Source: a virus
DNA: 37,868 nt
IMG/VR virus record: IMGVR_UViG_3300023223_000189
Span: 1-37,868 of that record
Reading direction: 5' to 3' (one strand)
Made by a program: the position numbers and the translations under genes. Below are positions 1,605 through 14,904 of this stretch, one piece after another; the stretch's first letter is position 1, and the number at the start of each line of letters is the position of its first letter. The notes below the pieces were generated by a model that saw only the letters and a list, made by a program, of their open reading frames with translations, searched no databases and was not told the origin of the DNA.

Positions 1605-1865
1605 TTACGGTTTGTTAATGCGATGCGCCTTAATTTGTCGCCTAACCATTGCTTTAGCGTCTATAGCACCTTTGTATCCACTCCACCACTTGTCCTTGGT
1701 GTCTATTACCGGGGGGTATTTGTCACCCCTGGCAGAGTGGTATCCGTCGCACACAGGGCAATCGTACAGCTCAGGCGCGTCAGAGTTACACATAGGGCAA
1801 AAACCATACCTTAGCCTTAATCTACCCTTGATTAGAGACAGCCGCCTCTGTATTGCTATCTTCAT
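1605..1865 (-). CDS. Zinc-ribbon protein (CPMC...CPVC)
   Basis: ATG at 1865 with AAGGTGA upstream. There are two CxxC pairs. Confidence 0.55.
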   Translation of the reverse strand: MKIAIQRRLSLIKGRLRLRYGFCPMCNSDAPELYDCPVCDGYHSARGDKYPPVIDTKDKWWSGYKGAIDAKAMVRRQIKAHRINKP

Positions 1866-1891
1866 ATCATTCACCTTGTCTTTGCATATTG

Positions 1892-2158
1892 TTATAAGAG
1901 AGGGTTAATTCGGGTATTCCAATCCTTTATTAGTAGTCTTTTGCTGTCCCTTTCCATACATATCTCGCAATGATTACACTCTACCCACCAGCAGCTATCA
2001 CCATGCTCTGGTCCTTGAATATTCGAATCACCGCAAAACGGACATGGCGCGAGGTCGGCAGGATCTTTTTTCAACTTGTTTATAGACATATTTAATCTAT
2101 CAACCACTAACTTCTCTCTCTGGAGCATTTGTTGATATTCTAGTTCGTTCATATTCAT
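1892..2158 (-). CDS. lar: Lar-family restriction-alleviation-like protein
   Basis: CPFCGDSNIQ...WWVECNHCEICMERDSKRLLIKDWNTR matches the Lar pattern CPFCG...C..C...A...WN.R. AAGGAA Shine-Dalgarno is present. Confidence 0.65.
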   Translation of the reverse strand: MNMNELEYQQMLQREKLVVDRLNMSINKLKKDPADLAPCPFCGDSNIQGPEHGDSCWWVECNHCEICMERDSKRLLIKDWNTRINPLL

Positions 2159-2197
2159 ACTATTTCCTTAAATTAATCCATACCGGTCTATAGAGGG

Positions 2198-2365
2198 TTA
2201 ATACCCCGGATCAAAAATACTCATATCCGTTTGAAATTTAGTTATCTTGAATATGCACCATTTGTGGAAATTATATTTAACCACGGTCTTCGTCTGATGA
2301 TCATTAATTCTGTGTAATTCAGACCATGTATTAAATAAGCCTGCTTCTGTGTCTCGCCACTTCAT
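2198..2365 (-). CDS. Hypothetical 55-aa protein (below ORF-track length cutoff)
   Basis: Hand translation MKWRDTEAGLFNTWSELHRINDHQTKTVVKYNFHKWCIFKITKFQTDMSIFDPGY, with AAGGAAA upstream. It is the first gene of the leftward arm. Confidence 0.5.
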   Translation of the reverse strand: MKWRDTEAGLFNTWSELHRINDHQTKTVVKYNFHKWCIFKITKFQTDMSIFDPGY

Positions 2366-2559
2366 ATCATTTCCTTTAACCCATAGTTATCACTAGAAGG
2401 GGTAGCTGATCTACTAGCATTCCCCTCACCTTACAATCTATTCTACTGGTCAAATATACTACGCTTATCAGGTCACAGTTTTTCGTCTTACCGGACGTCT
2501 ATTAAATCAGCTTCAAGACCTGTTTAATTGCAGAGCCCTGTAGTGGCCCTACATACACC

Positions 2560-2820
2560 CCTTCTAATCCTGGCTACTTGTCTATGAGGGAAGTTGCCAT
2601 TTGCCGTCAGGCTTTCGTCTGTGCGGCTGGTGCGGTAGTTATCAGTGTTACAGTCTTTGATTACCCAGTGTTAGATCTGGTGGGTGTCACAGTACCCAGG
2701 GCTGGGCAGATTGGAGTATTACTAGGAGTTGTGTATAATCGTTTTACGCCTAGCAGCCTCTATCTGCTTTGGTCTGTCCTCAAACCCTCGATCAGTTGAT
2801 GCTGATTGGGGGTTTTCTAT
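2560..2820 (+). ncRNA. Candidate non-coding transcript ending at an orphan intrinsic terminator. The 5' end is uncertain.
   Basis: There is no convincing CDS. A weak promoter candidate is TTGCAG (2528-2533), 16 nt, TACATA (2550-2555). Several local helices are readable, for example 2703-2711 with 2761-2769, 2722-2726 with 2749-2753, and 2663-2668 with 2679-2687. The unit ends at the 2785-2820 terminator. Confidence 0.25.
2785..2820 (+). terminator. Intrinsic terminator in the middle of the divergent control region
   Basis: An 11-bp stem CCCTCGATCAG / CTGATTGGGGG (two G-U pairs), loop TTGATG, followed by TTTTCTATTT. Confidence 0.6.
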
Positions 2821-2841
2821 TTCGGAAGACCTGAAATTAAT

Positions 2842-2855
2842 CTTTATTGATAAAG
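2842..2855. promoter_or_regulatory. Operator-like palindrome CTTTATTGATAAAG
   Basis: Read directly. It is the reverse complement of the site at 3024-3037. Confidence 0.4.
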
Positions 2856-3023
2856 TGCCTGTCTTTCCAAGCTGTCAACTTTGCTCACCTTCCCAACCAA
2901 ACCAGAACACGGGAAGCTACGAGACCTTTCGGTTTCGGGTCTTAAACCCTCATCAGTCGTAGTAATTGTTCTGGCCTGCCTATCTACTTGCAAAATGGCG
3001 ATAGGGTATGATCTTTTCACTTA

Positions 3024-3037
3024 CTTTATCAATAAAG
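3024..3037. promoter_or_regulatory. Operator-like palindrome CTTTATCAATAAAG
   Basis: Same 14-bp element as 2842-2855 in the opposite orientation, 182 bp away. Confidence 0.4.
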
Positions 3038-3079
3038 ACTAATCTAGAACTAATATTAAACCTATATAGCCGTTTAGCA

Positions 3080-3118
3080 AGTGGCATATCCAGTCAGAAA
3101 GTGAACGTATTTGCCACT
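3080..3118. promoter_or_regulatory. Inverted repeat AGTGGCA-N25-TGCCACT upstream of the rightward arm
   Basis: Read directly. It lies 67 bp upstream of the first rightward ATG. Confidence 0.3.
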
Positions 3119-3184
3119 ATCCATATCTTGATTAATTAGTTACTGTAATGACACTGAATATTTGATCAGGGTTAAGGAGGTTAC

Positions 3185-3439
3185 ATGGCATCAAGTTCAA
3201 TGTGTAAGACCTACGCCGCATTAAAGGGTCGTGGTGACTGGATGAGTAGGCTAGAAATAGCTCACGAGTCCGGGGTTGGCCCCAGGTGGGTTGGAGTATG
3301 CTCAAGATTATTAGTAGAAGGAGGTGTTGCAGAATCAAAGACAATAGATCGACGTAAATATTACCGGCTATCAACGGGTCACGAAGATAGCGCGGTAGTT
3401 AATGATATCAATGAATCTAACAGGATTAAATCAATATGA
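3185..3439 (+). CDS. Small winged-helix-like DNA-binding protein
   Basis: Strong TAAGGAGG Shine-Dalgarno. LEIAHESGVGPRWVGVCSRLLVEGGVAESK...YYRL resembles a wHTH. It is the first gene of the rightward arm, and its stop overlaps the next start. Confidence 0.5.
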   Translation: MASSSMCKTYAALKGRGDWMSRLEIAHESGVGPRWVGVCSRLLVEGGVAESKTIDRRKYYRLSTGHEDSAVVNDINESNRIKSI

Positions 3440-4209
3440 TCAACACAACTATTATGACAGTAACTCCGTCCAAGGCAAAGAAAATGCTTGAGATGAACCT
3501 AAATAACCGGCCATTAAATGGTAAGCACGTAGCGTTCATTGTTAGCGAAATTAAAAATGGCAACTGGAGACTAAATGGCGAGTCAATCAAGATTGGAAAA
3601 GATCGTCTAATTGATGGTCAGCATCGACTTCAGGCTATCGTGCAGTCAGGCAAATCTATGAAGACCGTAGTAATGACAGGTATTGATGATGATGTTTTTG
3701 ATACAGTAGATACCGGACGAGCCCGAAAGCATGCAGATATTTTAGCTCTCAATGGGGAGAAAAATACAGCGGCATTGGCATCATTGCTTATTATGTTACA
3801 TCGATATTATGGGGAGAACTGGAAGGATACAAAAAGAATGTCAAATTCTGAAATTGAAAAGCTGTTGGAAAAGTATCCTGATGCAAGAGCCTCCGTTGCC
3901 CATAATTATAGAGCCACGGGCTTATTTGTGCCAAAGATAATTAATCTATGTCATTATGTATTTAGCAATATCGACAAGGATCAAGCGGATTATTTTATCT
4001 CTTCAATGTGTAGTGGTGCGAATTTATCATCAAACAATCCAATTTACACGCTACGCAACAAGGTTATGACTGCCAAGCTAACCGGGGCAAGACATCATCC
4101 TGATACTATTTGCACTATGGCGTTTAAAGCATGGAACATGATCCGGCAAGGGAAAAAGTCTACCAGGCTGCATGTTAAGAGTACCGACACTCCTGACAAG
4201 GCAGTTTAG
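3436..4209 (+). CDS. ParB N-terminal-domain (ParB/Srx, DGQHR-type) protein
   Basis: The LIDGQHRLQAIVQSGK motif and downstream DTGRARK are typical of phage ParB-like nuclease-domain proteins. Confidence 0.65.
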   Translation: MINTTIMTVTPSKAKKMLEMNLNNRPLNGKHVAFIVSEIKNGNWRLNGESIKIGKDRLIDGQHRLQAIVQSGKSMKTVVMTGIDDDVFDTVDTGRARKHADILALNGEKNTAALASLLIMLHRYYGENWKDTKRMSNSEIEKLLEKYPDARASVAHNYRATGLFVPKIINLCHYVFSNIDKDQADYFISSMCSGANLSSNNPIYTLRNKVMTAKLTGARHHPDTICTMAFKAWNMIRQGKKSTRLHVKSTDTPDKAV

Positions 4210-4225
4210 CAGCGTATAACCAACC

Positions 4226-4250
4226 AAGGAGCTTAGCGGCTCCTTTTTAT
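4226..4250 (+). terminator. Intrinsic terminator after the ParB-like gene
   Basis: AAGGAGC-TTAGCG-GCTCCTT followed by TTTAT. Confidence 0.6.
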
Positions 4251-4295
4251 GTGCAAGGGGTTTGGTATAATAAACATTCGATTAAGGAGATTTAC

Positions 4296-4475
4296 ATGAA
4301 AAGAATTATTGCTGCCGCCAAATCTCTGGCAATGACGGGATGGTTTGTTAAAGCGTCTTGGGGATATATCGTTACTCGGCGACCCTCTTCAAAAGTTGAA
4401 TTTATTGTAGGCATAGTCCCCGCATGGTTCCGATTTACTATTTCCACATATAAGGACATCAGGCCAGGTGTCTAA
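4296..4475 (+). CDS. Hypothetical 59-aa protein, probably membrane-associated
   Basis: TAAGGAG Shine-Dalgarno 6 nt upstream of ATG 4296. The sequence is hydrophobic and aromatic-rich. Confidence 0.5.
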   Translation: MKRIIAAAKSLAMTGWFVKASWGYIVTRRPSSKVEFIVGIVPAWFRFTISTYKDIRPGV

Positions 4476-4557
4476 TTCTAAGACTTGGAAAAGGTGCGCC
4501 CTCCCAGGCTAGGCAGAATTGATCACTGCCTATTGACTGATCATAAAAGGAATCTAT

Positions 4558-4842
4558 ATGAACTGTCCAAATCCAATGTGCAAGTACGGCGCTGATGCCA
4601 ATTGCTGCAATCCTATGCACTCGTTCGAGAATGTTGGCAAGCGATACAGGAAAAAGGGCGCTACGTTAATGCGCCCATATGTACCAGGAGAAGACCTTAC
4701 AGGCATGTCTGTCAGCGAGGAGGATACCCCAGAGTTAGGCGGTATGATTGCCATAGGCGATGATAATGGCGCTCAGTGGTATGTGTCGAAAGGGTACTTT
4801 GATCAGTTTTATGAAGAGGTCCCTATTGTGAAAGAATGTTAA
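4558..4842 (+). CDS. Hypothetical protein with N-terminal Cys cluster
   Basis: 94 aa, AAGGA Shine-Dalgarno, followed by a promoter/terminator unit. Confidence 0.6.
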   Translation: MNCPNPMCKYGADANCCNPMHSFENVGKRYRKKGATLMRPYVPGEDLTGMSVSEEDTPELGGMIAIGDDNGAQWYVSKGYFDQFYEEVPIVKEC

Positions 4843-4843
4843 C

Positions 4844-4872
4844 TTGATAGATCATAGGTATTGGTTGATAAT
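4844..4872 (+). promoter_or_regulatory. Sigma70-like promoter TTGATA-17-GATAAT
   Basis: -35 at 4844-4849, 17-nt spacer, -10 at 4867-4872. Confidence 0.5.
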
Positions 4873-4878
4873 TCAATC

Positions 4879-4990
4879 CTACACAGAAAGACACACAGGT
4901 ATATACAGTTAACCGACCGGAGCAAGTCATCATGGCCTAACTCGACTAAATCCAGCGCACTGGTAGCCTCCTTTATGGGGGCTTTTTATT
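4879..4990 (+). ncRNA. Candidate ~110-nt sRNA or terminating leader upstream of the first deformylase gene
   Basis: It is bounded by the promoter at 4844-4872 and the terminator at 4965-4990. No ORF longer than a few codons lies inside. Confidence 0.35.
4965..4990 (+). terminator. Intrinsic terminator
   Basis: AGCCTCC-TTTAT-GGGGGCT (one G-U pair) followed by TTTTATT. Confidence 0.6.
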
Positions 4991-5077
4991 GCCTATTCAT
5001 TACCAAACATTAACGGTCATATATCCTGGCAGAGGTTATGATGGAGGCTCATTGATAAGGGAATGGAGAAGAACGAA

Positions 5078-5512
5078 ATGTCAATAAAGTTTGAAGGGCA
5101 TCCAGCGCTTTACAGAACGTCTATGGCTGTTGAGGGCGGGACGGATGTTATTTCTATAATTAGTCACTTGTGGTCTGTAATGACACAAGAGCGAGGATGC
5201 GGATTAGCACATAACCAAGTTGGTGGATCAAAGAGAATCATTGTTATTCATGCCAATGGATTTCGACAAGAATTTATTAATCCTATTATTACTAAGCGGT
5301 ATGGAGGAAAGACCACCAGCAGGGAGGGCTGCCTATCATTTCCCGGTCTTCAGGTTTCTGTTATTCGTGACAAGAAAATAATCGTTGAAGGATTTGATAA
5401 AAATTGGAAGCCGGTTAAATTCAAGCTAAAGGGTCTAGCTTCTTGTTGTGTCCAGCATGAAATTGATCATCTGGACGGGGTAACTATAAGTGACTATAAG
5501 GATAACGAATGA
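5078..5512 (+). CDS. def: Peptide deformylase, minimal phage type (copy 1, 144 aa)
   Basis: All three PDF motifs are present: GCGLAHNQ, EGCLSFPG and QHEIDHLDG. The protein ends ~10 residues after HExxH. GGAG lies 9 nt upstream of ATG 5078. Confidence 0.85.
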   Translation: MSIKFEGHPALYRTSMAVEGGTDVISIISHLWSVMTQERGCGLAHNQVGGSKRIIVIHANGFRQEFINPIITKRYGGKTTSREGCLSFPGLQVSVIRDKKIIVEGFDKNWKPVKFKLKGLASCCVQHEIDHLDGVTISDYKDNE

Positions 5513-5754
5513 ACAAGCCATACACACAAGACCAACTAGACCACTACATGGAAGTCGGCAGCGATAGCCGGTTTGAATACTGCATGGTTCGGCAGCTGAT
5601 GGAGGAGAATAAGTTGCTTAGAAGCGACAAGACAATGCTGGTTAATATTATTGCAATGGACGCAGAAGGCTGTGAAGCATTGGTAAAGGCTCACCGTGAG
5701 CTAGAGGAGAGCCATGCAGAGCTTGAAGACCTGCTAGATGGATTGACTGAATAG
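5509..5754 (+). CDS. Hypothetical acidic coiled-coil protein
   Basis: ATGA overlap with def copy 1. 81 aa. Confidence 0.6.
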   Translation: MNKPYTQDQLDHYMEVGSDSRFEYCMVRQLMEENKLLRSDKTMLVNIIAMDAEGCEALVKAHRELEESHAELEDLLDGLTE

Positions 5755-5758
5755 GGGC

Positions 5759-5893
5759 TCACGAAGCCCCAGCAATACCCCGCATTACCAGATCAACCGC
5801 AATGTCACTATTAGCAGCACCGCTTACACTCCAGCCGGCAACCAGGATGAATAGCCAGAATGACATCCATAGTACTCGTTTTATGTTGATCAT
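5759..5893 (-). CDS. 44-aa single-pass membrane peptide (below ORF-track cutoff)
   Basis: Hand translation MINIKRVLWMSFWLFILVAGWSVSGAANSDIAVDLVMRGIAGAS. ATGA overlap with the upstream gene. It is the last gene of the inverted cassette. Confidence 0.45.
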   Translation of the reverse strand: MINIKRVLWMSFWLFILVAGWSVSGAANSDIAVDLVMRGIAGAS

Positions 5894-6075
5894 GACTTTT
5901 CCTTGATTAAGACCTCAATGATATCGTCTAACTTTTTTCTGATATTTGAATATCCGTCCTTCTGAAGGCCAAGGACAAATGTTGGCGAACATCCTTCTTC
6001 CTTTGCAATTTTGTGAAGATCCGAATTATCAAGGACAAGATCAATAATCTCTCCATAGTATATGTGCTTATTCAT
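5890..6075 (-). CDS. Hypothetical protein
   Basis: 61 aa, start/stop-coupled within the inverted cassette. Confidence 0.55.
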   Translation of the reverse strand: MNKHIYYGEIIDLVLDNSDLHKIAKEEGCSPTFVLGLQKDGYSNIRKKLDDIIEVLIKEKS

Positions 6076-6293
6076 TTCCGTGACTCCAGTTTCTGCCGTA
6101 GCTTGTTAATCGTTTGTGACTGCTTGGCTATCTCATCTTTCTGCTCAAGGATTAGCTCCTGGTCGCGCAGTGCATTGGCCTGGTAGTGCTCGATAGTCTT
6201 CGGCATCGGCTCACCTTTAGCAGGGGTAACCGTATTGCCGTCTCGACAAACCTGGTCATAGCCTGCGTCTGGATCATATCTATCTATACCCAT
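6072..6293 (-). CDS. Hypothetical coiled-coil protein
   Basis: 73 aa, coupled starts and stops. Confidence 0.55.
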   Translation of the reverse strand: MGIDRYDPDAGYDQVCRDGNTVTPAKGEPMPKTIEHYQANALRDQELILEQKDEIAKQSQTINKLRQKLESRK

Positions 6294-6553
6294 TATTTCT
6301 CTTCCTTAGCTGCTGATAGCATGGCTTTGTATATGTCATAGTTCAGTTCTTCTGGCGCGATGCTAAAGCAATCATTAATATGCCTTGCTTCCTGCATCAT
6401 TGCATCTGTAGGATCTTCAGGCACTATTACCTTGCCTTCTAGGTGCTTATTGATTATGGCAATTGCATCCTCTACATCAAGACAAGTTACTCCTTGCCCA
6501 TAATGAAAGTTTGCTGCCTGTACTAGCTCATCAATCATCTCCTGCTTGCTCAT
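6293..6553 (-). CDS. Hypothetical protein
   Basis: 86 aa, coupled starts and stops. Confidence 0.55.
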   Translation of the reverse strand: MSKQEMIDELVQAANFHYGQGVTCLDVEDAIAIINKHLEGKVIVPEDPTDAMMQEARHINDCFSIAPEELNYDIYKAMLSAAKEEK

Positions 6554-6774
6554 ACGTTTTTATCCTTATGGTAAGTAACTGCCCCGACACGCTTCACCAT
6601 TCCCATCATGTTTAGAATCGCCTTAGATGGCGGCTTATGGCCGTTTAGCACCTGACCTATATATTGACGACTAACGCCTAGCACTTTGGCCACTGCGGCG
6701 GCTGGCGACGGATCATCACCATAATAGAATGCGATGTGTACCGCCATTGCCTGTCTGAATTTCTTCTCGTTCAT
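6550..6774 (-). CDS. Cro/YdaS-like HTH regulator
   Basis: VAKVLGVSRQYIGQVLNGHKPPSKAI is an HTH pattern like Cro/YdaS. GGAGG Shine-Dalgarno is present. It is the first gene of the inverted cassette. Confidence 0.7.
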   Translation of the reverse strand: MNEKKFRQAMAVHIAFYYGDDPSPAAAVAKVLGVSRQYIGQVLNGHKPPSKAILNMMGMVKRVGAVTYHKDKNV

Positions 6775-6799
6775 TACTGCCTCCTATTAAGTTGAGATA

Positions 6800-6828
6800 A
6801 TAATAAACAATAAGGGGTTGCAGTGCAA
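6800..6828 (-). promoter_or_regulatory. Leftward sigma70-like promoter TTGCAC-17-TATTAT for the inverted cassette
   Basis: On the minus strand, -35 is at 6828-6823 and -10 at 6805-6800. Confidence 0.5.
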
Positions 6829-6846
6829 GCGGTATTGGTTTATATT
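6818..6846 (+). promoter_or_regulatory. Rightward sigma70-like promoter TTGCAG-17-TATATT for def copy 2
   Basis: -35 at 6818-6823, -10 at 6841-6846. The two -35 boxes together form the palindrome TTGCAGTGCAA (6818-6828). Confidence 0.5.
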
Positions 6847-6879
6847 CATTCCATCACTTGCGGTATGGAGCAAAACAGA

Positions 6880-7314
6880 ATGGCATTAAAGTTTGAAGGA
6901 CACCCAGCACTGAGTAACACGTCAACGGCTGTTGATAGAGGCGACGATGTGCTTTCCACAATTAGCCATATGTGGTCTGTAATGACACAGGAACGAGGAT
7001 GTGGATTAGCAAATAACCAAGTGGGCGGATCGAAAAGAATTATTGTTGTTCACGCCAATGGGTTTCGCCAGGAATTCATAAACCCTATTATCACCAAGCG
7101 ATATGGAGGAAAGATCACTAGCAAGGAGGGGTGCCTATCATTTCCCGGCCTTCAAGTTTCCGTTATTCGTGATAGGAAGATAATCGTTGAGGGGTTTGAT
7201 AAAAATTGGAAGCCGGTTAAATTTAAATTAAAAGGTCTAGCTTCTTGTTGTGTCCAGCATGAAACTGATCATTTGGACGGGGTAACTTTAATTGACCATA
7301 AGGATAAATCATGA
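6880..7314 (+). CDS. def: Peptide deformylase, minimal phage type (copy 2, 144 aa)
   Basis: Motifs GCGLANNQ, EGCLSFPG and QHETDHLDG. It has the same length and the same start context (GGAGCAAAACAGA-ATG) as copy 1. Confidence 0.85.
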   Translation: MALKFEGHPALSNTSTAVDRGDDVLSTISHMWSVMTQERGCGLANNQVGGSKRIIVVHANGFRQEFINPIITKRYGGKITSKEGCLSFPGLQVSVIRDRKIIVEGFDKNWKPVKFKLKGLASCCVQHETDHLDGVTLIDHKDKS

Positions 7315-7586
7315 GCAAGCAAGAAGTAACATTCAAATACCAATTCGGCCAGATTCTTATAACCGTTGTAGCATCTGTCACTCTGGGTAGTCCGGCCAAG
7401 ACATATGGTGAGGCTGAACACTGTCACCCTGCAGAAGACGCCGAGGTTGAGCTTCTAGTCGTGATGGCACCATGGGCAACAAAGATGCAGGCAGAGGACT
7501 ACGGCGTCCCTGAGATGGGCAGATTTCGCGGCCTGGATGATGTATTGAAAGACTTGGCTATTGCCGAAGCCGTGGAGCAAGACTAA
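7311..7586 (+). CDS. Hypothetical protein
   Basis: ATGA overlap with def copy 2. 91 aa. Confidence 0.6.
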   Translation: MSKQEVTFKYQFGQILITVVASVTLGSPAKTYGEAEHCHPAEDAEVELLVVMAPWATKMQAEDYGVPEMGRFRGLDDVLKDLAIAEAVEQD

Positions 7587-7795
7587 TGGAGAGTCACAAT
7601 GCAGATCAAGCCCAACATATTTCTTCTATCTTCGCTATGGCCCCTCCTGTATCTGGATTTGATACGCATCGCGACGAGGGGGAGAGAAGAACCAACATCA
7701 ATAAAAAAGCACGTGCCGAAGCTGCACAATCTCGACGAAAAATGGGACAAGCTGAGCTACGAATCCAATACCAAATCGAGGCGGCTGCAGAATGA
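7586..7795 (+). CDS. Hypothetical basic protein
   Basis: TAATG overlap with the upstream gene. 69 aa. Confidence 0.5.
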   Translation: MESHNADQAQHISSIFAMAPPVSGFDTHRDEGERRTNINKKARAEAAQSRRKMGQAELRIQYQIEAAAE

Positions 7796-7959
7796 CTGAC
7801 TATTATGTTGAAATATGGCAGACATTCCCGTCAACTGGGGTAACTAAAACAATGGGGCCATTTAGTAAATCAAAAGCTTCGCGAGTTGCTGACGGGGTTG
7901 AGATGAATCTTGATGAAGAGTTTTATTCTGTTCTTATAGTTAGTGATGAAGATGAGTGA
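7792..7959 (+). CDS. Hypothetical 55-aa protein (below ORF-track cutoff)
   Basis: Hand translation MTDYYVEIWQTFPSTGVTKTMGPFSKSKASRVADGVEMNLDEEFYSVLIVSDEDE. ATGA overlap upstream and ATGAGTGA overlap downstream. Confidence 0.5.
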   Translation: MTDYYVEIWQTFPSTGVTKTMGPFSKSKASRVADGVEMNLDEEFYSVLIVSDEDE

Positions 7960-8164
7960 CCGAATAGAGAGGCTGAAGCAATCGGATGAGGGTAAGTCTC
8001 GCGCTATGGAGCTGTTCTATTTTCACTCCGACTCTGCCGAGATTCTAAGCCAGTTATCAGAGCAGCCTAACTATGGATTGCTCCGGTTTAGCGTTGTAAT
8101 GAGTGAGATATACCAGCAGATGGCAATTGACGATCAAGCCAAAGAAGACATGAACAAAGCTTAA
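7952..8164 (+). CDS. Hypothetical acidic protein
   Basis: Start chosen at the ATG (7952) that overlaps the upstream stop. Confidence 0.55.
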   Translation: MSDRIERLKQSDEGKSRAMELFYFHSDSAEILSQLSEQPNYGLLRFSVVMSEIYQQMAIDDQAKEDMNKA

Positions 8165-8219
8165 CATTAGCCACCACAATCCAGTGCTACAATATACGCT
8201 CAACTAAGGAGAGAAGACG

Positions 8220-8420
8220 ATGGAAGCAACGCATATTATTAAGCCGCCAGGGGCTCTAAAAGCCTACACAATAGACTTATTGGAAGAGCATACTTCATGT
8301 CTATTTATTGTTAAAACTGACGGAAATTACTGCGGCCCTACATCTTATAGCGAAGATTGGGCAATATACCTACACAACGAAATGTTCAGTAAGGCTCGCG
8401 GAGCATACGACTATGAGTAG
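8220..8420 (+). CDS. Hypothetical protein
   Basis: AAGGAG Shine-Dalgarno. 66 aa. Confidence 0.6.
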   Translation: MEATHIIKPPGALKAYTIDLLEEHTSCLFIVKTDGNYCGPTSYSEDWAIYLHNEMFSKARGAYDYE

Positions 8421-8604
8421 CGAGCAGGAATTACTAGAAGAGCTTAGCCGTCAATATGCTGGTGATGGTCAGGGTTATTATTTGGCTGAGCTTCAGTTAA
8501 TTCTGAAGGGGAAGATTCAAAGCGATATCACTGATGACCATGTATCTGCATTGCATACTGAGATGGTTAATCGCAACCAGGTTAAAATGGAGTTGTCGCT
8601 GTGA
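8413..8604 (+). CDS. Hypothetical protein
   Basis: ATG 8413 overlaps the upstream stop. The longer 8308 start lies inside the upstream gene. Confidence 0.55.
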   Translation: MSSEQELLEELSRQYAGDGQGYYLAELQLILKGKIQSDITDDHVSALHTEMVNRNQVKMELSL

Positions 8605-9065
8605 GCATTACAGATCAGCTTAAGCAGCCCTTCAATCCCTCTGTGGTTCATTGGCGCGTAGGATCAACCAACGCCAAGAAGCTTGGCTGCAAGCCGTGGC
8701 AGGCTACAAAGGGCATTGCACTGGCCTATATCGACGCCAGGGACGTTATGAAGCGCTTGGACGATGTATGCGGCGACCTCTGGCAAGTTGAGTACCCCTT
8801 TGATGGCTGCTGTCGTATTGGCATTAAAATTGACAACGAGTGGATTTGGCGTAGCAATGGAGCCGGTGAAACTCAAGTCGAGGGTGAAAAGGGTAAGTTC
8901 TCCGATGCATTCAAGAGGGCCGCCGTGCTTTGGGGGGTTGGTCGATACCTGTATTACCTCCCGAATACTTGGTGTGATTTGAGTAACGGAAAGATTGTTA
9001 AAACTCCAGCATTGCCCACTTGGGCTCTACCACAAGGAAAGAAAGATGACCAAAGTCATACTTGA
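8601..9065 (+). CDS. Rad52-family single-strand annealing protein
   Basis: GEKGKFSDAFKRAAVLWGVGRYLY matches the conserved Rad52/Rad22 segment (K.A.sDa.KRA...G.G). GTGA-coupled start. Confidence 0.6.
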   Translation: MSITDQLKQPFNPSVVHWRVGSTNAKKLGCKPWQATKGIALAYIDARDVMKRLDDVCGDLWQVEYPFDGCCRIGIKIDNEWIWRSNGAGETQVEGEKGKFSDAFKRAAVLWGVGRYLYYLPNTWCDLSNGKIVKTPALPTWALPQGKKDDQSHT

Positions 9066-9720
9066 CATAGAAACCTTACCTACTCAGCCAGAAGAAGAAG
9101 CAAAATCACAGATTGCCAAGACTACTCAGCATCCTGCAGCCATGAAGAAGCCCGAGACAATCGATGCTTGGCACAAAGGTCTTGATAAGTATGCCGGCGC
9201 TAAAGATGCGGCCATTGAGGATGAATACCGGAAGTCTTCTTTTGATGGCGGTAAGGGTGAGATTTGCTCTATTGCTTGGAAGGTTGAAGGTGCGGATTTT
9301 TGCTCCCTTTCTAGAGGTGGGCATGACGAGATAGACATGATTGGTGTTTTCTTTGACCTTGCTTCATTTAAATGCAATGGCCGCCCTCCTTTCTTCATCG
9401 GTCACAATATCCCTTTCGACCTGCAATTCATCTGGCGGCGCGCTGTAATCCTTGGCGTTAAACCTCCATTTGCGCTGCCCTTTGATGGCCGACACGGCAA
9501 AGACTATTACGACACAATGCAGGCATGGGCTGGGTACAATAAGCGTATCAGCCAGGATAATCTCTGCAAGGCGCTGGGCATTGAAGGCAAGCCAGGTGAT
9601 ATCAGTGGCGCTAATGTGTGGGATCATTATAAGAAGGGAGACATCGCCCGTATTGAAGAGTACAACCGTTCAGATGTCGAAACGGTAGAGAAGATCTATA
9701 ATCGAATCAATTTCATCTAA
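9046..9720 (+). CDS. DnaQ-like (PolB-exo-type) 3'-5' exonuclease
   Basis: The N-terminus MTKVILDIETLP contains the DxE ExoI motif, and HNIPFDLQFI is ExoII-like. AAGGAA Shine-Dalgarno lies before ATG 9046. Confidence 0.6.
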   Translation: MTKVILDIETLPTQPEEEAKSQIAKTTQHPAAMKKPETIDAWHKGLDKYAGAKDAAIEDEYRKSSFDGGKGEICSIAWKVEGADFCSLSRGGHDEIDMIGVFFDLASFKCNGRPPFFIGHNIPFDLQFIWRRAVILGVKPPFALPFDGRHGKDYYDTMQAWAGYNKRISQDNLCKALGIEGKPGDISGANVWDHYKKGDIARIEEYNRSDVETVEKIYNRINFI

Positions 9721-9736
9721 TCCCAGGTCGGGTACT

Positions 9737-9760
9737 GCCCTGCTAGCGTGGGGCTTTTTT
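9737..9760 (+). terminator. Intrinsic terminator
   Basis: GCCCT-GCTAGCGT-GGGGC followed by TTTTTT. Confidence 0.55.
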
Positions 9761-9775
9761 ATTAAGGGAAATATT

Positions 9776-9988
9776 GTGGCTAAGATTAAAGGAACTATTA
9801 AGAAGATTACTTATCACGTAATTGATCTAGATACAGATGATTACATTGATAATGATGCCAAAATAAATGATGTATTTGATTTTTTCGAATCGGTAAAAGA
9901 AGATCCTATGGATTTTGCTGAGGAGTTTATTGAGCGAATCGGTAACAACGCAGAAATTGAAGTTCAATCAATCAAAATTGAAGATTAA
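9776..9988 (+). CDS. Very acidic 70-aa protein
   Basis: GTG start after AAGGGAA. Asp/Glu-rich throughout (DLDTDDYIDNDAKINDVFDFFESVKEDPMDFAEEFIE). Confidence 0.55.
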   Translation: MAKIKGTIKKITYHVIDLDTDDYIDNDAKINDVFDFFESVKEDPMDFAEEFIERIGNNAEIEVQSIKIED

Positions 9989-9999
9989 GGAGAATTATC

Positions 10000-10176
10000 T
10001 TGCTGGTACTTTCCAGGCGCGTTGGAGAAGTTTTATATATTGGTGACGATGTGAAGATCACCGTTTTAAGCATAAGCGGCCAGCAGGCCAGGGTTGGAAT
10101 TTCTGCTCCTGATGATGTGCTTATATTGCGTGAAGAAGTAAAATTGCGAAACGAGCGCGAAGAAAATGAACGTTGA
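10000..10176 (+). CDS. csrA: CsrA/RsmA-family RNA-binding translational regulator (58 aa, TTG start, absent from ORF track)
   Basis: Hand translation LLVLSRRVGEVLYIGDDVKITVLSISGQQARVGISAPDDVLILREEVKLRNEREENER aligns position-for-position with E. coli CsrA [54 protein letters not shown] lies at 9987-9992. Confidence 0.8.
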   Translation: MLVLSRRVGEVLYIGDDVKITVLSISGQQARVGISAPDDVLILREEVKLRNEREENER

Positions 10177-10495
10177 TATCACAGACAAGCGAGTTGAGAC
10201 GGCTATCAAATACCTAGCGTCAACCGATGAGTCTCATGCGCGCGAGAGGGCTAACTATCACGCCTTAGAGCAGCTTCGCAAGACGGTAAGGGCTCAGTGC
10301 TTCGGAGATGCTAAAGGTGGCGTGAAGGAGCGGGAAATGGCTGCTGAGTGCGACCCTATCTACATTGAGCATATCGAGCGCATCAAGCAGGCTGAATTCG
10401 AGTTTCATCATACTCACAACAAGCGAAAGCTGGCTGAATTGACTGTTGAGATGTATCGAACAATGTCGGCTAATCAGCGTAAGGGGAATATATGA
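10166..10495 (+). CDS. Hypothetical helical protein, translationally coupled to csrA
   Basis: The ATG lies 11 nt inside the csrA 3' end. 109 aa. Confidence 0.6.
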   Translation: MNVDITDKRVETAIKYLASTDESHARERANYHALEQLRKTVRAQCFGDAKGGVKEREMAAECDPIYIEHIERIKQAEFEFHHTHNKRKLAELTVEMYRTMSANQRKGNI

Positions 10496-11031
10496 AGGCT
10501 CTAAAGCAGAAGAAGTGCAAAGCCTGCCGTGAGCTATTCACCCCGTTTAACTCAATGACTAAGGCGTGCTCTGTTAAGTGCGCCCTGGTTGTTGCAAAAG
10601 ACTCTAAAGATAAGGAGTATCGACGTGAAACAAAGCGACTCAAGCAAAAAATCAAGTTTAAATCCTGCTGGCTTTCTGAGGCTCAGACAGAGTTTAACAA
10701 GTTTATTCGGCTTCGTGATATGGATAAGCCTTGCATTAGTTGCGGTAGGCATCATGACGGGCAATACCATGCTGGCCATTATAGGACTGTCGGAGCTCAT
10801 CCTGAGCTGCGTTTCACTGAGACAAATTGTCATAAGCAGTGCGCCCCATGCAATAACCACAAGAGCGGAAATATTGTTGAGTATCGTATTAATCTTGCTA
10901 AGCGCCTCACTAGCTCTCAGCTCCACTGGCTAGAAGGCCCGCACAAGCCTTTAAAGCTAACCATAGACGATATCAAGGCTATTAAAGAGAAGTACAATCG
11001 AAAGTATAAAGAGCTTAAGGAGATGGAATGA
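10492..11031 (+). CDS. ninG: NinG/Rap-family recombination endonuclease
   Basis: KKCKACRELFTP...AQTEFNKFIRLRD...PCISCG...GHY...CAPCN matches the lambda NinG pattern. Confidence 0.75.
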   Translation: MKALKQKKCKACRELFTPFNSMTKACSVKCALVVAKDSKDKEYRRETKRLKQKIKFKSCWLSEAQTEFNKFIRLRDMDKPCISCGRHHDGQYHAGHYRTVGAHPELRFTETNCHKQCAPCNNHKSGNIVEYRINLAKRLTSSQLHWLEGPHKPLKLTIDDIKAIKEKYNRKYKELKEME

Positions 11032-11210
11032 AGCACTACGACGATAGAGATATTATGCAGCTTGATGAGGCTGGCGACTTTTACACTAATCATGTAATGG
11101 CTATGACTGCAGAAAAGCTACATTCAAAATCAGATATAGCTGCAGAACTTGGCTGGCGCGACATGGAGATTGACAGGCTCAAATGCATGCTGGATTTTCA
11201 TTCGCCATAA
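11028..11210 (+). CDS. Hypothetical protein
   Basis: ATGA overlap with ninG. 60 aa. Confidence 0.55.
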   Translation: MKHYDDRDIMQLDEAGDFYTNHVMAMTAEKLHSKSDIAAELGWRDMEIDRLKCMLDFHSP

Positions 11211-11283
11211 CATTACGAAAGTTTAAGAGTATAAAATCGTATGGCTGCTATTGTATACACACTAACTTATTAAGGGGAAAGGA

Positions 11284-11445
11284 ATGAACGAAGTAATCAC
11301 ACATCTCGCCGGTACTATCGCTGTATATGGATCTTTCTATAGTGTCTGCTCAGTTTTGAGCAGTATTAAAACCGGGAACCAACTTGAGCTGTTTATTGCT
11401 CCACTTTCTGCATCGCTAGCAATAGGATATTTAATAGCATATTAA
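11284..11445 (+). CDS. 53-aa two-helix membrane protein (below ORF-track cutoff)
   Basis: Hand translation MNEVITHLAGTIAVYGSFYSVCSVLSSIKTGNQLELFIAPLSASLAIGYLIAY. AAGGGGAAAGGA Shine-Dalgarno. It is followed by the hairpin GGGGT-TTCG-GCCCC. Confidence 0.45.
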   Translation: MNEVITHLAGTIAVYGSFYSVCSVLSSIKTGNQLELFIAPLSASLAIGYLIAY

Positions 11446-11497
11446 CCAATGGGGTTTCGGCCCCTAATCAATCGCATAGGTAAGGATAGCAGCTGTC

Positions 11498-11722
11498 ATG
11501 GAAATTGAAGATATTGCAAATCAAGTGATGTTTGGCAGGGTGACAATGTCAGAGATTATTAAATCTGAGGGGCTTGAGTATAGAAAGGGTAAAAGCATAA
11601 CTGATGTAAGAAAGGCATTGGAAAAAGCCTTTAAGAAAGGACAGCAGAAGACAGAGCTTGAGATTGGATTATTTGAGATATATTTCTCACAGCTTTTTAA
11701 GAAAACTAGAATCAATAAATAG
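11498..11722 (+). CDS. Hypothetical protein
   Basis: 74 aa ORF in the co-oriented gene array. Confidence 0.5.
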   Translation: MEIEDIANQVMFGRVTMSEIIKSEGLEYRKGKSITDVRKALEKAFKKGQQKTELEIGLFEIYFSQLFKKTRINK

Positions 11723-11737
11723 CCGGAGTAAACTGCT

Positions 11738-11983
11738 ATGTGCAAGAAATACGTAACACCTCACAACCAGCTGTCAGACCTCGAACAAGAGGCGCTACGG
11801 GCTAAGTTCAGCAAGGGTAGCCCTGACAAGCATCGAGCTATATTCTGCCATGACACGCGCACTATGATCCTAGCAGCCCCCTTTCATGTACCCATGCAGA
11901 AAACTAAGCAGGCCATCCAAGGAATGATTAACCTGTATTCTCCTGACCGTATCGAGATTACAGCATTGCCGAGGGCTGTGTAA
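11738..11983 (+). CDS. Hypothetical protein
   Basis: GGAG Shine-Dalgarno. 81 aa. Confidence 0.55.
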   Translation: MCKKYVTPHNQLSDLEQEALRAKFSKGSPDKHRAIFCHDTRTMILAAPFHVPMQKTKQAIQGMINLYSPDRIEITALPRAV

Positions 11984-12357
11984 TGAGGGATATAAGATTT
12001 CGCGCATGGGATAAAGCAACTAAATCAATGGTTGATTCGACAACTCATTCATCGTGGAAATTTTATCTACTCGATGGAGGGAGCTCCATTGATCAAGTTT
12101 GGGCCACCAAGGATCTAGAGCTAATGCAATTCACCGGCCTAAAGGATATGAACGGTGTCGAGATTTATTCGGGGGATATCATACGGCTGTACCCTGACGA
12201 AATTGGTTTCTCCTATTTAAAGGAAGTGGTAGCGGCTGAAGATAGGCCAACACTTGGATTTGAAGGATCTGGAGCTATATTGTGTGAAGGGAATTCCTCG
12301 ATCATGCTTGTGGTCGGTAATATTCATCAGGATAAAGAATTACTGGAGGCGTCATGA
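11983..12357 (+). CDS. YopX-family protein
   Basis: MRDIRFRAWDK...LMQFTGLKDMNGVEIYSGDII is the typical YopX N-terminal pattern. Confidence 0.7.
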   Translation: MRDIRFRAWDKATKSMVDSTTHSSWKFYLLDGGSSIDQVWATKDLELMQFTGLKDMNGVEIYSGDIIRLYPDEIGFSYLKEVVAAEDRPTLGFEGSGAILCEGNSSIMLVVGNIHQDKELLEAS

Positions 12358-12761
12358 CAGATAAAGATTGCATAAAGCATCAGTTATTAAAAGCCCTGTC
12401 GTGCAATCAATTCCTGACCAGTAGTGAGGCATGGGGAAAACTTACGGTTAGCTGTACAAAGCTTGAAGTTTCCAAGATTATGTTAGAGCTCCACGAAGAG
12501 GGGAAGGTATCGCACCGAAGAACTGGAAAGAAGCGGCCTTATATTTACTGGGTAGATCTGATCAATATTGAGCCTGTTCCTGAATCTGCAAGAGTTCGCT
12601 GTGATCCAGTAATCGGCAGTGATGTATCGTATTCAGCATGGGGCCACTTTCGACAGGTGCTTTTCAAGGCTCAATACAAGGTACTTGCACCCGCTGCATT
12701 TGTCTTTGGTGTCGGTATAATGGCAGTATTTGACATGATAGTTAACGCCATATCTGGCTAA
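12354..12761 (+). CDS. Hypothetical protein with winged-helix-like N-domain and C-terminal transmembrane helix
   Basis: GGAGG Shine-Dalgarno. The C-terminal hydrophobic stretch is LAPAAFVFGVGIMAVFDMIV. Confidence 0.5.
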   Translation: MTDKDCIKHQLLKALSCNQFLTSSEAWGKLTVSCTKLEVSKIMLELHEEGKVSHRRTGKKRPYIYWVDLINIEPVPESARVRCDPVIGSDVSYSAWGHFRQVLFKAQYKVLAPAAFVFGVGIMAVFDMIVNAISG

Positions 12762-12771
12762 GGATTTGAGC

Positions 12772-13020
12772 ATGAATGCTCAGGTGATAAGTATCAACAA
12801 CAGAATAGAGCAGCGATCAAACCGGGCCATGGCAAGGCGTCTAAATAATCAGGCTGAGCGTGTTAAGGCTATGAGAGTCAAGCTTGAGGAGGACTCGTTT
12901 GACCTATTCCTGGCCGGAGTTAACCCGCAGGAAGTCATGCGATTCTCTAAGCATCTTCGCGCTGTGTACGGGGATTTAAAAGAAGCGGCAATTGGGGGGA
13001 ATATCGATGTCAATATTTAG
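12772..13020 (+). CDS. Hypothetical protein
   Basis: ATG 12772 lies 7 nt after AAGGA. Confidence 0.5.
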   Translation: MNAQVISINNRIEQRSNRAMARRLNNQAERVKAMRVKLEEDSFDLFLAGVNPQEVMRFSKHLRAVYGDLKEAAIGGNIDVNI

Positions 13021-13387
13021 CAGGGTGGCCGGAGCATTCCTCGGCACAGACAAGGCTGTATCGGGCGTGATGGATATCGCCAAGAAGGGTATGGATATCT
13101 GGGACATGTCCAAGCTGACGCATCAGGAGCGTCTTCAGGCTTTCGTTATCGCCGTCAAGGCAACGGCAAGCAAAGAGACTGCAATCTCCCGCAGGATCAT
13201 CGTGTGGTCTCTGACGGCTATGATCTCATTCTGCTTGGTTGTCGGAACCATCTGGATTGGCCTTGGATCGACCGAGAAGGTGGACCAGCTTGTATTGCTA
13301 GTTGAGGCGCTGAAGATTGGCTGGGGATGGGGTGTTAGCTTGACGTTCTACTTCCTGGCTCATTTGACGATTGGGGGCAAGAAATGA
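13007..13387 (+). CDS. Putative holin (GTA-holin-3TM-like)
   Basis: The N-terminus MSIFSRVAGAFLGTDKAVSGVMDIAKKG... followed by C-terminal transmembrane helices resembles the GTA_holin_3TM family. It heads the lysis cassette. Confidence 0.5.
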   Translation: MSIFSRVAGAFLGTDKAVSGVMDIAKKGMDIWDMSKLTHQERLQAFVIAVKATASKETAISRRIIVWSLTAMISFCLVVGTIWIGLGSTEKVDQLVLLVEALKIGWGWGVSLTFYFLAHLTIGGKK

Positions 13388-13512
13388 ATACTCTATCATG
13401 CGCTATTACATGTGTTATTTTTGGCACCCTGCACGCCATTGACGGGAATCCTCAAGCGTCAACATACGCTGCAGCGTTTCTTATTATTTTAGCGATAAGG
13501 TCAGAGAAATGA
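13384..13512 (+). CDS. 42-aa membrane micro-protein (below ORF-track cutoff)
   Basis: ATGA overlap with the holin. Hand translation MNTLSCAITCVIFGTLHAIDGNPQASTYAAAFLIILAIRSEK. Confidence 0.4.
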   Translation: MNTLSCAITCVIFGTLHAIDGNPQASTYAAAFLIILAIRSEK

Positions 13513-13688
13513 ATCGCAAATGGTGGCCAGACCTGACATTCCTGTATACACCTCTACGAGATACGGCATTTTACATTGTGTTTGGGGTTGTAATTGGCTT
13601 TGGGCTTATCGACTGTAACGAGAAAAGAGGCGATATTGACATGAATACTCACGCTGAACTCACAGAAAATATTAAGGAAGAAAAATGA
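13509..13688 (+). CDS. 59-aa single-pass membrane protein (below ORF-track cutoff)
   Basis: ATGA overlaps on both sides. Hand translation MNRKWWPDLTFLYTPLRDTAFYIVFGVVIGFGLIDCNEKRGDIDMNTHAELTENIKEEK. Confidence 0.4.
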   Translation: MNRKWWPDLTFLYTPLRDTAFYIVFGVVIGFGLIDCNEKRGDIDMNTHAELTENIKEEK

Positions 13689-14128
13689 CGACGATTGCAT
13701 GGGATGGTAAAACACTGGCTGTCGATAGCAGGGCTACATCTGACGGGTACGTAATGACCGACAAGTGTAAAAAGCTGTATACCGGGGTAGGCCAGTATGT
13801 AGCGGCTGCCATGTGCGGTGATGAGGCCGAGGCCGTAGACATGATGGACTGGCTGCGCACTGGCGGGAAAGCCCCCGAGTGCAAGGAGGGTGTGATTATC
13901 GTTGCCGTAATGGAAGACGGTACAGCCCACAAGTTCACCGGGGGCATTGAGACCCCTATCAAGGTCCAGGTGCCCTACGCCGACGGGTCAGGGTGGATCG
14001 TGGCCCTCGCGTCAATGGATGCCGGGCTGAATGCAGTTGAGGCAGTGAAGGCTGCCAGGAAGCGCGACATCTACACTGGCGGCCCAGTAAAGTCGTTTAA
14101 AATAGGGGCTGACGATGAAGGTATCTAA
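13685..14128 (+). CDS. HslV/proteasome-beta-like N-terminal-nucleophile hydrolase (147 aa)
   Basis: MTTIAWDGKTLAVDSRATSDGYVMTDKCKKLY...AAAMCGDEAEA...ADGSGW parallels HslV [38 protein letters not shown]...GFAGGTADA...GSGG. Thr immediately follows the initiator Met. Confidence 0.55.
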   Translation: MTTIAWDGKTLAVDSRATSDGYVMTDKCKKLYTGVGQYVAAAMCGDEAEAVDMMDWLRTGGKAPECKEGVIIVAVMEDGTAHKFTGGIETPIKVQVPYADGSGWIVALASMDAGLNAVEAVKAARKRDIYTGGPVKSFKIGADDEGI

Positions 14129-14468
14129 AGACTTCCATGACTGGGAATTTGAATGCAGCTGCGGATGCGGCAAGAACAACATCGGCGCGGCTGTGGTGTA
14201 TGTCCTTCAGCGCGTCAGGGATTACTATGACAGCCCTGTTACCGTGACATCAGCTGTCAGGTGCCTGGTATACAATCGTAGTGATGACGTTGGCAGTAAT
14301 GACAAGTCACAGCACCCGAGGCGCACAGCTGTTGATTTCACTGTACAGGACGTTGATCCATATGATGTATTTGCGCTGCTTTGCGGATGGTATCCTGACT
14401 CCCTGGGTATCGGTCGATATTGTAACTTTACTCACGTTGATACTCGATTGATTAAGGCAAGGTGGTAA
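14115..14468 (+). CDS. Peptidase M15 (VanY/M15_3-type) endolysin
   Basis: EFECSCG...VTSAVRCLVYN...SQHPRRTAVDFTV...NFTHVD carries the H..D...H zinc-ligand pattern of M15 cell-wall peptidases. Confidence 0.75.
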   Translation: MKVSKDFHDWEFECSCGCGKNNIGAAVVYVLQRVRDYYDSPVTVTSAVRCLVYNRSDDVGSNDKSQHPRRTAVDFTVQDVDPYDVFALLCGWYPDSLGIGRYCNFTHVDTRLIKARW

Positions 14469-14470
14469 CT

Positions 14471-14587: not shown

Positions 14588-14604
14588 GTTGTACGTTATT
14601 ATTG

Positions 14605-14832: not shown

Positions 14833-14904
14833 GGTTAATCCTTGCTTTGGCTTGAGAGACCAAAATAGTAACATTGCATCGTAATTATGAAGGTTAAACT
14901 TCTG

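Follow-up and report, generated by a model that had tools for sequence, protein, structure and literature searches.

What is encoded in the gap at positions 2366 to 3184 of the viral genome record IMGVR_UViG_3300023223_000189? The whole of this record, 37,868 nucleotides (nt) long, was analyzed and is called the window here. An initial annotation had proposed that the gap holds a large structured noncoding RNA on the plus strand, a transcribed replication origin, or a regulatory RNA governing the choice between the two flanking arms of genes. The strongest features of the gap, absent from that annotation, are a hammerhead ribozyme on the minus strand and a 21-nt inverted repeat surrounding it. 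The reading that we consider probable, with moderate confidence, is that the leftward early transcript cleaves itself within its leader, which a convergent countertranscript overlaps.

A canonical type I hammerhead ribozyme, judged by sequence, occupies 2898 to 2978 on the minus strand; it was recognized by the Rfam family HH9, by its minimum-energy fold, by a covariance model of our own (R1), and by a core pattern. Its parts, all read on the minus strand, include the following: a 6-bp proximal stem I (2962 to 2957 paired with 2922 to 2917); a 12-bp distal stem I (2978 to 2967 paired with 2909 to 2898), which lies beyond an internal loop; the core CUGAUGA (C3 U4 G5 A6 U7 G8 A9) at 2956 to 2950; the 5-bp stem II GGGUU-UAA-GACCC at 2949 to 2937, closed by G10.1-C11.1; the GAA (G12 A13 A14) at 2936 to 2934; the stem III ACC-GAAA-GGU at 2933 to 2924, with 3 bp, a GAAA loop, and the pair A15.1-U16.1; and the cleavage triplet GUC at 2925 to 2923, in which C17 is position 2923 and the predicted cut falls between 2923 and 2922. 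The closing pairs G10.1-C11.1, A15.1-U16.1, and N1.1-N2.1 are all present, and the minimum-energy fold of 2980 to 2890 (minus strand) is exactly this three-way junction. Fast cleavage requires a tertiary contact of stem I with stem II, through their loops or a pseudoknot; here the internal loop of stem I (AAUU/CUUCCCG) faces the UAA loop of stem II, with no Watson-Crick complementarity visible by eye in this single sequence. A CTTCCC/GGGAAG helix (2889 to 2894 and 2911 to 2916), read on the minus strand, forms an alternative hairpin that would compete with distal stem I.

In an E-value scan of 2200 to 3300, Hammerhead_HH9 (RF02275) matched 2974 to 2896 on the minus strand with 26.4 bits (E = 4.4e-4). 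Model R1, built from 14 other viral hammerheads with the window copy left out, gave the window hammerhead 52.2 bits (E of about 8e-14), a score that is partly by construction, since the training copies were collected with a pattern made from the window's core and stem III; the pairings of stems I and II are independent evidence for the hammerhead. R1 found nothing else in the window or in the loci L001 to L007. The core pattern, which is rare in shuffled sequences, occurs at 2 sites in the window against 0.02 expected; the second site, 10109 to 10152, was rejected as a hammerhead when R1 gave it no score. The same core and stem III were found in 23 IMG/VR contigs (chance expectation there, by our own estimate, about 0.06), 55 metagenome contigs, and 4 bacterial genomes. 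Of the 45 distinct copies, 41 have a complementary stem I; double changes occur at all six pairs, and 92.7% of the stem's cells are paired, compared with 22 to 35% when the partners are slid along each other.

Hammerheads have already been established in phage intergenic regions, including those of PaP3, Bcep176, HF1/HF2, and clusters of prophages (Perreault et al. 2011, PMC3088659), and the window copy adds one more member to a known class. The novel class of RNA that the initial annotation had envisaged thus gave way to a known ribozyme class, which provides the best-supported RNA fold of the gap and lies on the opposite strand. Hammerhead ribozymes are known in phages and prophages by the thousands. 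Among 185,579 species-representative genomes, the subtype occurred in four (L150 to L153), namely two of Acinetobacter, one of Pseudomonas nitroreducens, and an Enterobacterales metagenome-assembled genome, which hints at a gammaproteobacterial host range. In the locus L016, a hammerhead of the same subtype (6528 to 6566, minus strand) lies just downstream of an array of 14 transfer RNAs (tRNAs; 6889 to 11538) and is followed by about 300 nt poor in open reading frames (ORFs). Units of about 215 nt that adjoin hammerheads in another contig, L029, had no Rfam match.

Which transcript would carry the ribozyme is indicated by the layout of the genome. The ends of the window form an exact 144-bp direct repeat (1 to 144 and 37725 to 37868), so the window is complete and comprises two divergent arms; the genome is that of a lambdoid, P22-like podophage of about 37.7 kb. 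In the ORF maps, all genes from 3185 to 14468 lie on the plus strand and all genes leftward of 2365 lie on the minus strand, across the contig ends and down to 14993, the arms converging at 14468 to 14993. The left arm begins with small early genes, which are followed by packaging and virion genes. The gap is flanked by a leftward gene at 2198 to 2365 (minus strand), whose start codon lies at the gap edge, and by a rightward gene at 3185 to 3439 (plus strand), and an exact-sequence look-up of both flanking proteins returned no record. Given the gene orientation in both arms, the gap is the sole divergent control region of the genome, and the ORF maps, the terminal repeat, and the GC skew, which has its cumulative minimum at about 2900 to 3100, mark it as a divergent early control region.

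Since the genes to the right of the hammerhead include none on the minus strand, an RNA that contains it has to begin no more than a few hundred bases upstream. With so close a start and no minus-strand terminator predicted between 2896 and 2365, the ribozyme would lie in the 5' leader of the left arm; across 1800 to 3800, the single predicted terminator is on the plus strand. A relaxed scan found a weak candidate leftward promoter, TTGCTA-N16-TAATAT, at 3053 to 3080 on the minus strand (8/12), with a putative start at about 3046. The noncoding spacer at 2379 to 2710 (about 330 nt) contains no credible ORF, no excess structure, no Rfam match, and no similarity to related loci, and is most simply read as a long 5' untranslated leader of the leftward arm.

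In the proposed mechanism, the leftward transcript would start at about 3046, and the three-way junction would fold while the leader is being synthesized, whereupon the RNA would cut itself after C2923. The cut would leave a 5' piece of about 124 nt ending in a cyclic phosphate and a downstream messenger RNA (mRNA) that begins with a 5'-hydroxyl, 45 nt ahead of a conserved hairpin. This mRNA would continue through the small early genes and round the circle into the packaging and structural genes.

The countertranscript is suggested by a claim of the initial annotation that was confirmed, namely that a strong plus-strand terminator sits in mid-gap; it very probably ends a transcript begun inside the gap. 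The intrinsic terminator was found at 2782 to 2815, with 15 pairs (G-T pairs included), a loop of 4, and a U tract (tail TTTTCTATTT); its two G.U pairs are mismatches on the minus strand, which makes it specific to the plus strand. A relaxed sigma-70 scan found a promoter-like site, TTGGAG-N17-TATAAT, at 2711 to 2739 on the plus strand (9/12, with a perfect -10 and a predicted start at about 2746), which a stricter promoter scan did not list. The more likely plus-strand product is a short RNA of about 78 nt (2746 to 2824) from this site, predicted to consist of a 5' hairpin with a CCUCUAU loop, the terminator hairpin, and the U tract. From the gene orientation and the lack of a predicted minus-strand terminator, we infer that this small RNA overlaps the leftward leader, to which it is fully complementary. 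It would converge with the cleaved leader, pair with its positions of about +224 to +300, and most likely act as a countertranscript that tunes leftward expression, as in lambdoid phages.

Related loci show the same layout, and we therefore take the orphan terminator to close a small-RNA gene that is short and conserved, not a long structured RNA. The closest relatives (L002, L004 to L007, and L154) were found through a ParB-like protein, which is 60% identical in L002 and 49 to 52% identical in the other five, and they share with the window only the rightward gene pair. A search of IMG/VR with this protein gave one locus that is not syntenic, and neither more distant ParB homologues (L155 and L156) nor homologues of the first leftward gene (L157 to L160) were syntenic. 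L004 to L007 likewise contain a gap without genes, about 1 kb long; there, only the 3' half of the terminator resembles the window in nucleotide sequence, and the distance from the terminator to the rightward operon is about 375 nt, compared with 370 nt in the window. An invariant 40-nt block in the relatives holds the near-consensus promoter TTGACA-N17-TAGACT (TACACT in L007; 10/12) about 29 nt before the terminator hairpin, and RNAs of 75 to 79 nt are predicted in L004 to L007, compared with 79 nt when the window is read by the same layout. Positions 7 to 9 of the terminator stem change as pairs among the relatives (UA/CG, AU/GC/GU), and the stems contain G.U pairs that are valid on the plus strand only. 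In addition, L004 has a strong leftward promoter, TTGACA-N16-TATGAT (11/12), back to back with the rightward one, so that the leftward transcript of the relatives would cross the small RNA in antisense.

Between the small-RNA terminator and the back-to-back promoters of the relatives, at the place that the hammerhead occupies in the window, lie repeats that resemble a three-way junction. In L004 (5489 to 5624, with equivalents in L005 to L007 and L154), these are conserved, nested inverted repeats, TTAAGGTGTAC...GTACACCTTAA, that enclose two hairpins and include GTGGAAAAC / GTTTTCCAC. One A-U to G.U change leaves the pairing valid on the minus strand only, and the repeats could serve as operators or as structured RNA. 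No ribozyme emerged when the gaps of L004 and L002 were scanned with Rfam by E-value.

The terminator also bears on the large RNA of the initial annotation, which would run on the plus strand from about 2400 to 2820 and end there, or on a transcribed origin in its stead; we consider either quite improbable. The terminator does need an upstream start, and a weak promoter-like site is present at 2431 to 2460. The relatives, moreover, have a noncoding module of about 430 nt in this slot, to the left of the small-RNA gene (L004, 4812 to 5239; L005, 4812 to 5235; L006, 2440 to 2861; L154, about 290 to 710), which is 86 to 90% identical among L004, L005, and L006, compared with 72 to 84% for the flanking genes. 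Yet the window has no similarity to this module, which in L007 is replaced by an equally long, unrelated sequence (4440 to 4868), and the promoter-like sites that flank the module in L004 point leftward. The module itself had no Rfam match, and its minus-strand fold had a z-score of -2.0.

Folding and family searches likewise argue against a large structured RNA over 2390 to 2960. Compared with dinucleotide shuffles, sliding 120-nt windows had fold z-scores of -1.8 to +1.0 over 2300 to 2700 on both strands, and strongly negative values (-3 to -4) were obtained only at the terminator; the minus strand of 2366 to 2745 (380 nt) had z = -0.9. The stretch 2390 to 2780 is thus no more stably folded than its shuffles. 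At gathering scores, Rfam gave 0 matches across the 37,868 bases of the window and none in the relatives. Apart from the terminator, nothing in 2390 to 2960 is similar to the relatives. The four helices that had been cited for a structured RNA were misplaced by one position in three cases, and their lengths are within chance expectation: AGAAGGGG lies at 2395 to 2402, CCCCTTCT at 2558 to 2565, CTTCCC at 2889 to 2894, and GGGAAG at 2911 to 2916, and by chance alone 820 nt should hold about 0.3 perfect 10-mers and several 8-mers, so that complements of 5 to 10 bp are unremarkable. The base composition was as the annotation had it, with a GC content of 0.44 to 0.49 in 2400 to 2900 and 0.33 to 0.40 in 2900 to 3200. 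Its proposal of a regulatory RNA region thus held in part: the gap is a divergent control region with functional-looking RNA elements, and the large plus-strand RNA was not borne out.

An origin finds some support in a match to the DnaA-box consensus, TTATACACA, at 2730 to 2738 on the minus strand, which overlaps the -10 of the small-RNA promoter. This is the single copy in the 37.8-kb genome, without genome-wide enrichment, and one DnaA box is weak evidence for an origin; a repeat search of the gap found no iterons or other origin features. The same 9-mer occurs in the invariant promoter spacer of L004 to L007, with its orientation to the small RNA reversed.

It is also very improbable that the terminator ends the mRNA of a small hydrophobic protein encoded by the ORF at 2578 to 2799. 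Its stop codon does fall inside the terminator stem, and the product would have two hydrophobic stretches; but this 73-codon frame begins with TTG, lacks a Shine-Dalgarno sequence, and has a codon score of -0.02, in the spurious range. A search of 1.84 billion representative proteins gave 4 weak matches in multiple stretches, to long repetitive or low-complexity proteins, and the related loci have no counterpart. The absence of a credible gene, as first annotated, extends to the whole gap: the ORFs at 2578 to 2799, 2729 to 2962, 2844 to 3020, and 2881 to 3042 all lack a Shine-Dalgarno sequence and have noncoding codon scores (-0.07 to +0.04). Scores were log-odds of codon usage trained on 28 long window genes, which themselves scored 0.13 to 0.49, and 31 out-of-frame ORFs used as a control scored -0.34 to +0.09.

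The inverted repeat around the hammerhead opens further alternatives to a self-cleaving leader. In a repeat search, the left arm ATTAATCTTTATTGATAAAGT (2836 to 2856) and the right arm ACTTTATCAATAAAGACTAAT (3023 to 3043) were 95% complementary over 21 nt, with one mismatch, and they close a 208-nt domain around the hammerhead. As RNA, the minus strand of 3050 to 2830 folds at -73.3 kcal/mol (z = -5.8), with none of 200 shuffles as stable and with the hammerhead junction kept. The left arm contains the 14-bp palindrome CTTTATTGATAAAG, and this palindrome, CTTTATNNATAAAG, has two sites in the genome, 2842 to 2855 and 3024 to 3037, one in each arm. The repeat could therefore be an RNA helix of the kind cut by RNase III or a pair of operators, and the confinement of the palindrome to these two sites makes it equally readable as operators 182 bp apart. 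However, the repeat runs 6 to 7 nt past the palindromic core and matches there only in inverted orientation, which gives a slight lean toward an RNA helix or terminal repeats. In the proposed mechanism, the repeat would close the ribozyme domain as a long RNA helix or serve as a pair of repressor sites.

If the palindromes are operators, the switch may be one of protein: a helix-turn-helix repressor would bind both and loop the 182 bp over the leftward promoter, the terminator would only insulate the arms from each other, and the hammerhead and the short RNA would be incidental. This is possible, although we hold it to be unlikely, and it is compatible with self-cleavage of the leader. The two occurrences of the palindrome in 37.8 kb both fall in the gap, and each arm is palindromic in itself; the phage encodes a Cro/CI-type helix-turn-helix protein (377 to 580), the small protein that adjoins the gap (3185 to 3439) is common to the relatives, and their equivalent stretch contains repeated inverted motifs (GGTGTAC and GTGGAAAAC). 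Independent operators, however, would not require the inverted match past the palindrome, the palindrome is absent from all related loci, and a perfect ribozyme core and a covarying terminator would be left unexplained.

The geometry of the repeat, with 21-nt arms 166 bp apart, also resembles that of invertons, in which case the arms would be recombination sites that flip the 166-bp segment and so redirect transcription, as an invertible promoter would. Such a switch is scarcely credible: the window proteins that were scanned yielded no match to an invertase or integrase family, and the arms are largely self-palindromic.

A doubtful explanation, somewhat less implausible than inversion, is that the 208-bp segment (2836 to 3043), with the hammerhead and the hairpin, is a mobile or acquired cassette without a regulatory role, bounded by terminal inverted repeats. 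Both motifs are absent from the six relatives and occur in unrelated viral contigs, sometimes side by side, and selfish elements often carry hammerheads (PMC3088659). The closest relative, L002, has in its gap (4150 to 5521) an HNH endonuclease gene and a T5orf172/MUG113 gene, both of homing-endonuclease type, as well as a different 25-nt inverted repeat (4831 to 4855 and 4970 to 4994) that encloses 114 nt without a known RNA family. Nevertheless, the window segment has no target-site duplication, no second genomic copy, and no transposase. The exact 34-nt ribozyme core was absent from IMG/VR, and a looser core that keeps the start of the window's stem I was absent from the metagenome collection.

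The hairpin of this segment lies at 2877 to 2856 on the minus strand, between the ribozyme and the left repeat arm and 45 nt 3' of the predicted cleavage site, and its 22 nt (UGACAGCUUG-GAAAGA-CAGGCA) form a 5-bp stem, with UGACAGC-UU-G before the GAAAGA loop and C-AG-GCA after it. A degenerate search for TGACARC-NN-G GAAAGA C-NN-GYA matched at least 120 IMG/VR contigs, and in all 120 matches listed, the stem is fully paired and covarying, compared with about 14% by chance. Among these 120, the hairpin lies outside any ORF of at least 80 amino acids in 77, and in 22 it ends 2 to 11 nt 5' of a tRNA on the same strand; the copies show no conservation past the 22 nt. Hairpin-bearing loci, apart from the window, are L031 to L149 and L009, L021, L024, L029, and L176, and in unrelated contigs the hairpin also flanks hammerheads. 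By this distribution, the hairpin is a widespread viral motif.

Several observations touch on the hairpin. In some contigs, it recurs every 200 nt or so, with one copy 7 nt 5' of a hammerhead, and L038 (4125 to 4400) has three identical 78-bp tandem repeats that each carry the motif. In the window, a mini-ORF of 13 codons that begins with TTG (2878 to 2837, minus strand), with AAGGUGA upstream, spans the hairpin. Two identifications were discarded: a sigma-70 promoter (TTGACA with a 17-nt spacer) would have a poor -10 in the window and none in the tRNA-linked copies, and a link of Drum RNA to ribozymes and tRNAs was contradicted by the paper on it. Neither the hairpin sequence nor any hairpin placed upstream of tRNAs in phages turned up in a search of the literature.

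Several findings weigh against a self-cleaving leader overlapped by a countertranscript. The HH9 match of 26.4 bits lies below the gathering score of 52, and a stricter scan of the whole window lost it. HH9, the best Rfam model, is a mammalian intronic family, and L029, a viral example of the subtype, scored still lower (21.8 bits), which indicates that the Rfam models fit this subtype poorly. No good sigma-70 promoter was found for the hammerhead transcript, the best candidate being the 8/12 site, and the -35 of the small RNA is poor (3/6). Most copies of the subtype lie 13 to 25 nt before a start codon, and here the first annotated gene is 557 nt away, the 13-codon mini-ORF being all that lies nearby. 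The cleavage products would stay joined by helices of about 18 + 25 bp, so that cleavage alone may change little. Finally, both the pattern and model R1 found no hammerhead in the related loci L001 to L007; its absence from the six related loci indicates that it is not a conserved part of the control region and may be a recent acquisition.

Several known systems resemble the proposed leader in part. Like the hammerheads of phages and prophages (Rfam clan CL00010), the window copy has an identical core, a three-helix junction, an open stem I (type I) with an internal loop, and an intergenic position in a tailed phage; unlike them, it precedes the next annotated gene by 557 nt and not by about 15 to 25 nt, and it sits inside a 208-nt domain closed by a 21-nt inverted repeat. 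In the haloviruses HF1/HF2, the first gene of an early operon has a hammerhead 13 nt upstream, and a mapped mRNA 5' end coincides with the cleavage site (PMC3088659). The ribozyme of this helicase operon heads an early polycistronic transcript, as is proposed for the window; it differs in its altered core, its distance of 13 nt from the start codon, and the domain of its host, and cleavage in the window is predicted.

The small RNA resembles the countertranscripts of lambdoid phages, of which lambda OOP has 77 nt and P22 sar about 69 nt, in its size of about 78 nt, its own predicted promoter, its intrinsic terminator, and its convergent overlap, and the phage is itself lambdoid in its NinG, Rad52-type recombinase, and P22-like packaging. 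Unlike OOP and sar, with which it has no sequence similarity, it is predicted to overlap a noncoding leader and not a coding region or ribosome-binding site. The lambda N leader, with its nutL boxB hairpin and an RNase III-sensitive helix, is likewise a long, structured leftward leader, in which a 5-bp hairpin whose loop is rich in purines is combined with an extended double-stranded helix. The window leader, in contrast, has no boxA, its loop has 6 bases and not 5, and no N-like arginine-rich protein was identified; the window hairpin motif elsewhere directly precedes tRNAs, a placement that is not known for nut sites. Synthetic insulators of the RiboJ type also place a hammerhead and then a hairpin in a 5' leader, and cleavage as predicted here would similarly give a 5'-hydroxyl end that does not depend on the promoter; the window element differs in being natural and in having its hairpin 45 nt away, far from any ribosome-binding site.

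The virion and packaging proteins of the window include an SU10-type major capsid protein and adaptor and proteins like gp3 and gp7 of P22, together with a large terminase and a portal at about 30% identity to those of various podophages; NinG, a Rad52-type recombinase, an M15 endolysin, and two peptide deformylases were also identified. The two deformylase genes lie separately in the rightward arm (5063 to 5512 and 6823 to 7314; Pfam E = 1e-36 and 1e-37). A scan of the window for tRNAs and transfer-messenger RNA found none, and nucleotide searches against isolated phages with the gap and its flanks, with the first 25 kb, or with the hammerhead alone gave no useful match. Among the relatives, homologues of ParA-type proteins and of CsrA are encoded by L004 to L006. 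L005 additionally carries ParG-like and LuxR-type autoinducer-binding homologues and, at 7314 to 8636, a TROVE (Ro60-like) protein. These genes suggest plasmid-like maintenance and RNA-binding functions in takeover of the host.

This arrangement could make the role of hammerheads in phages testable. The window copy is unusually readable, as it stands at the start of one of two arms in a small, complete genome, beside a predicted, conserved short convergent RNA and a long helix, and, provided that the phage or a synthetic version of the region can be expressed, it would permit a compact test of whether cleavage sets mRNA stability and whether it is coupled to antisense control. More speculatively, and on balance improbably, the hammerhead, the helix of the 21-nt repeat, the hairpin, and the small RNA would act jointly as an RNA-based gate where the transcript of the whole left arm begins, virion genes included, and ribozyme cleavage would then have a definite regulatory task in a phage. 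Separately, the hairpin, which often lies 2 to 7 nt before tRNAs, may be a new, widespread viral RNA signal that marks the 5' ends of tRNAs and other RNA units for a processing or binding factor. The hairpin may offer a separate lead on RNA processing in the tRNA clusters of phages.

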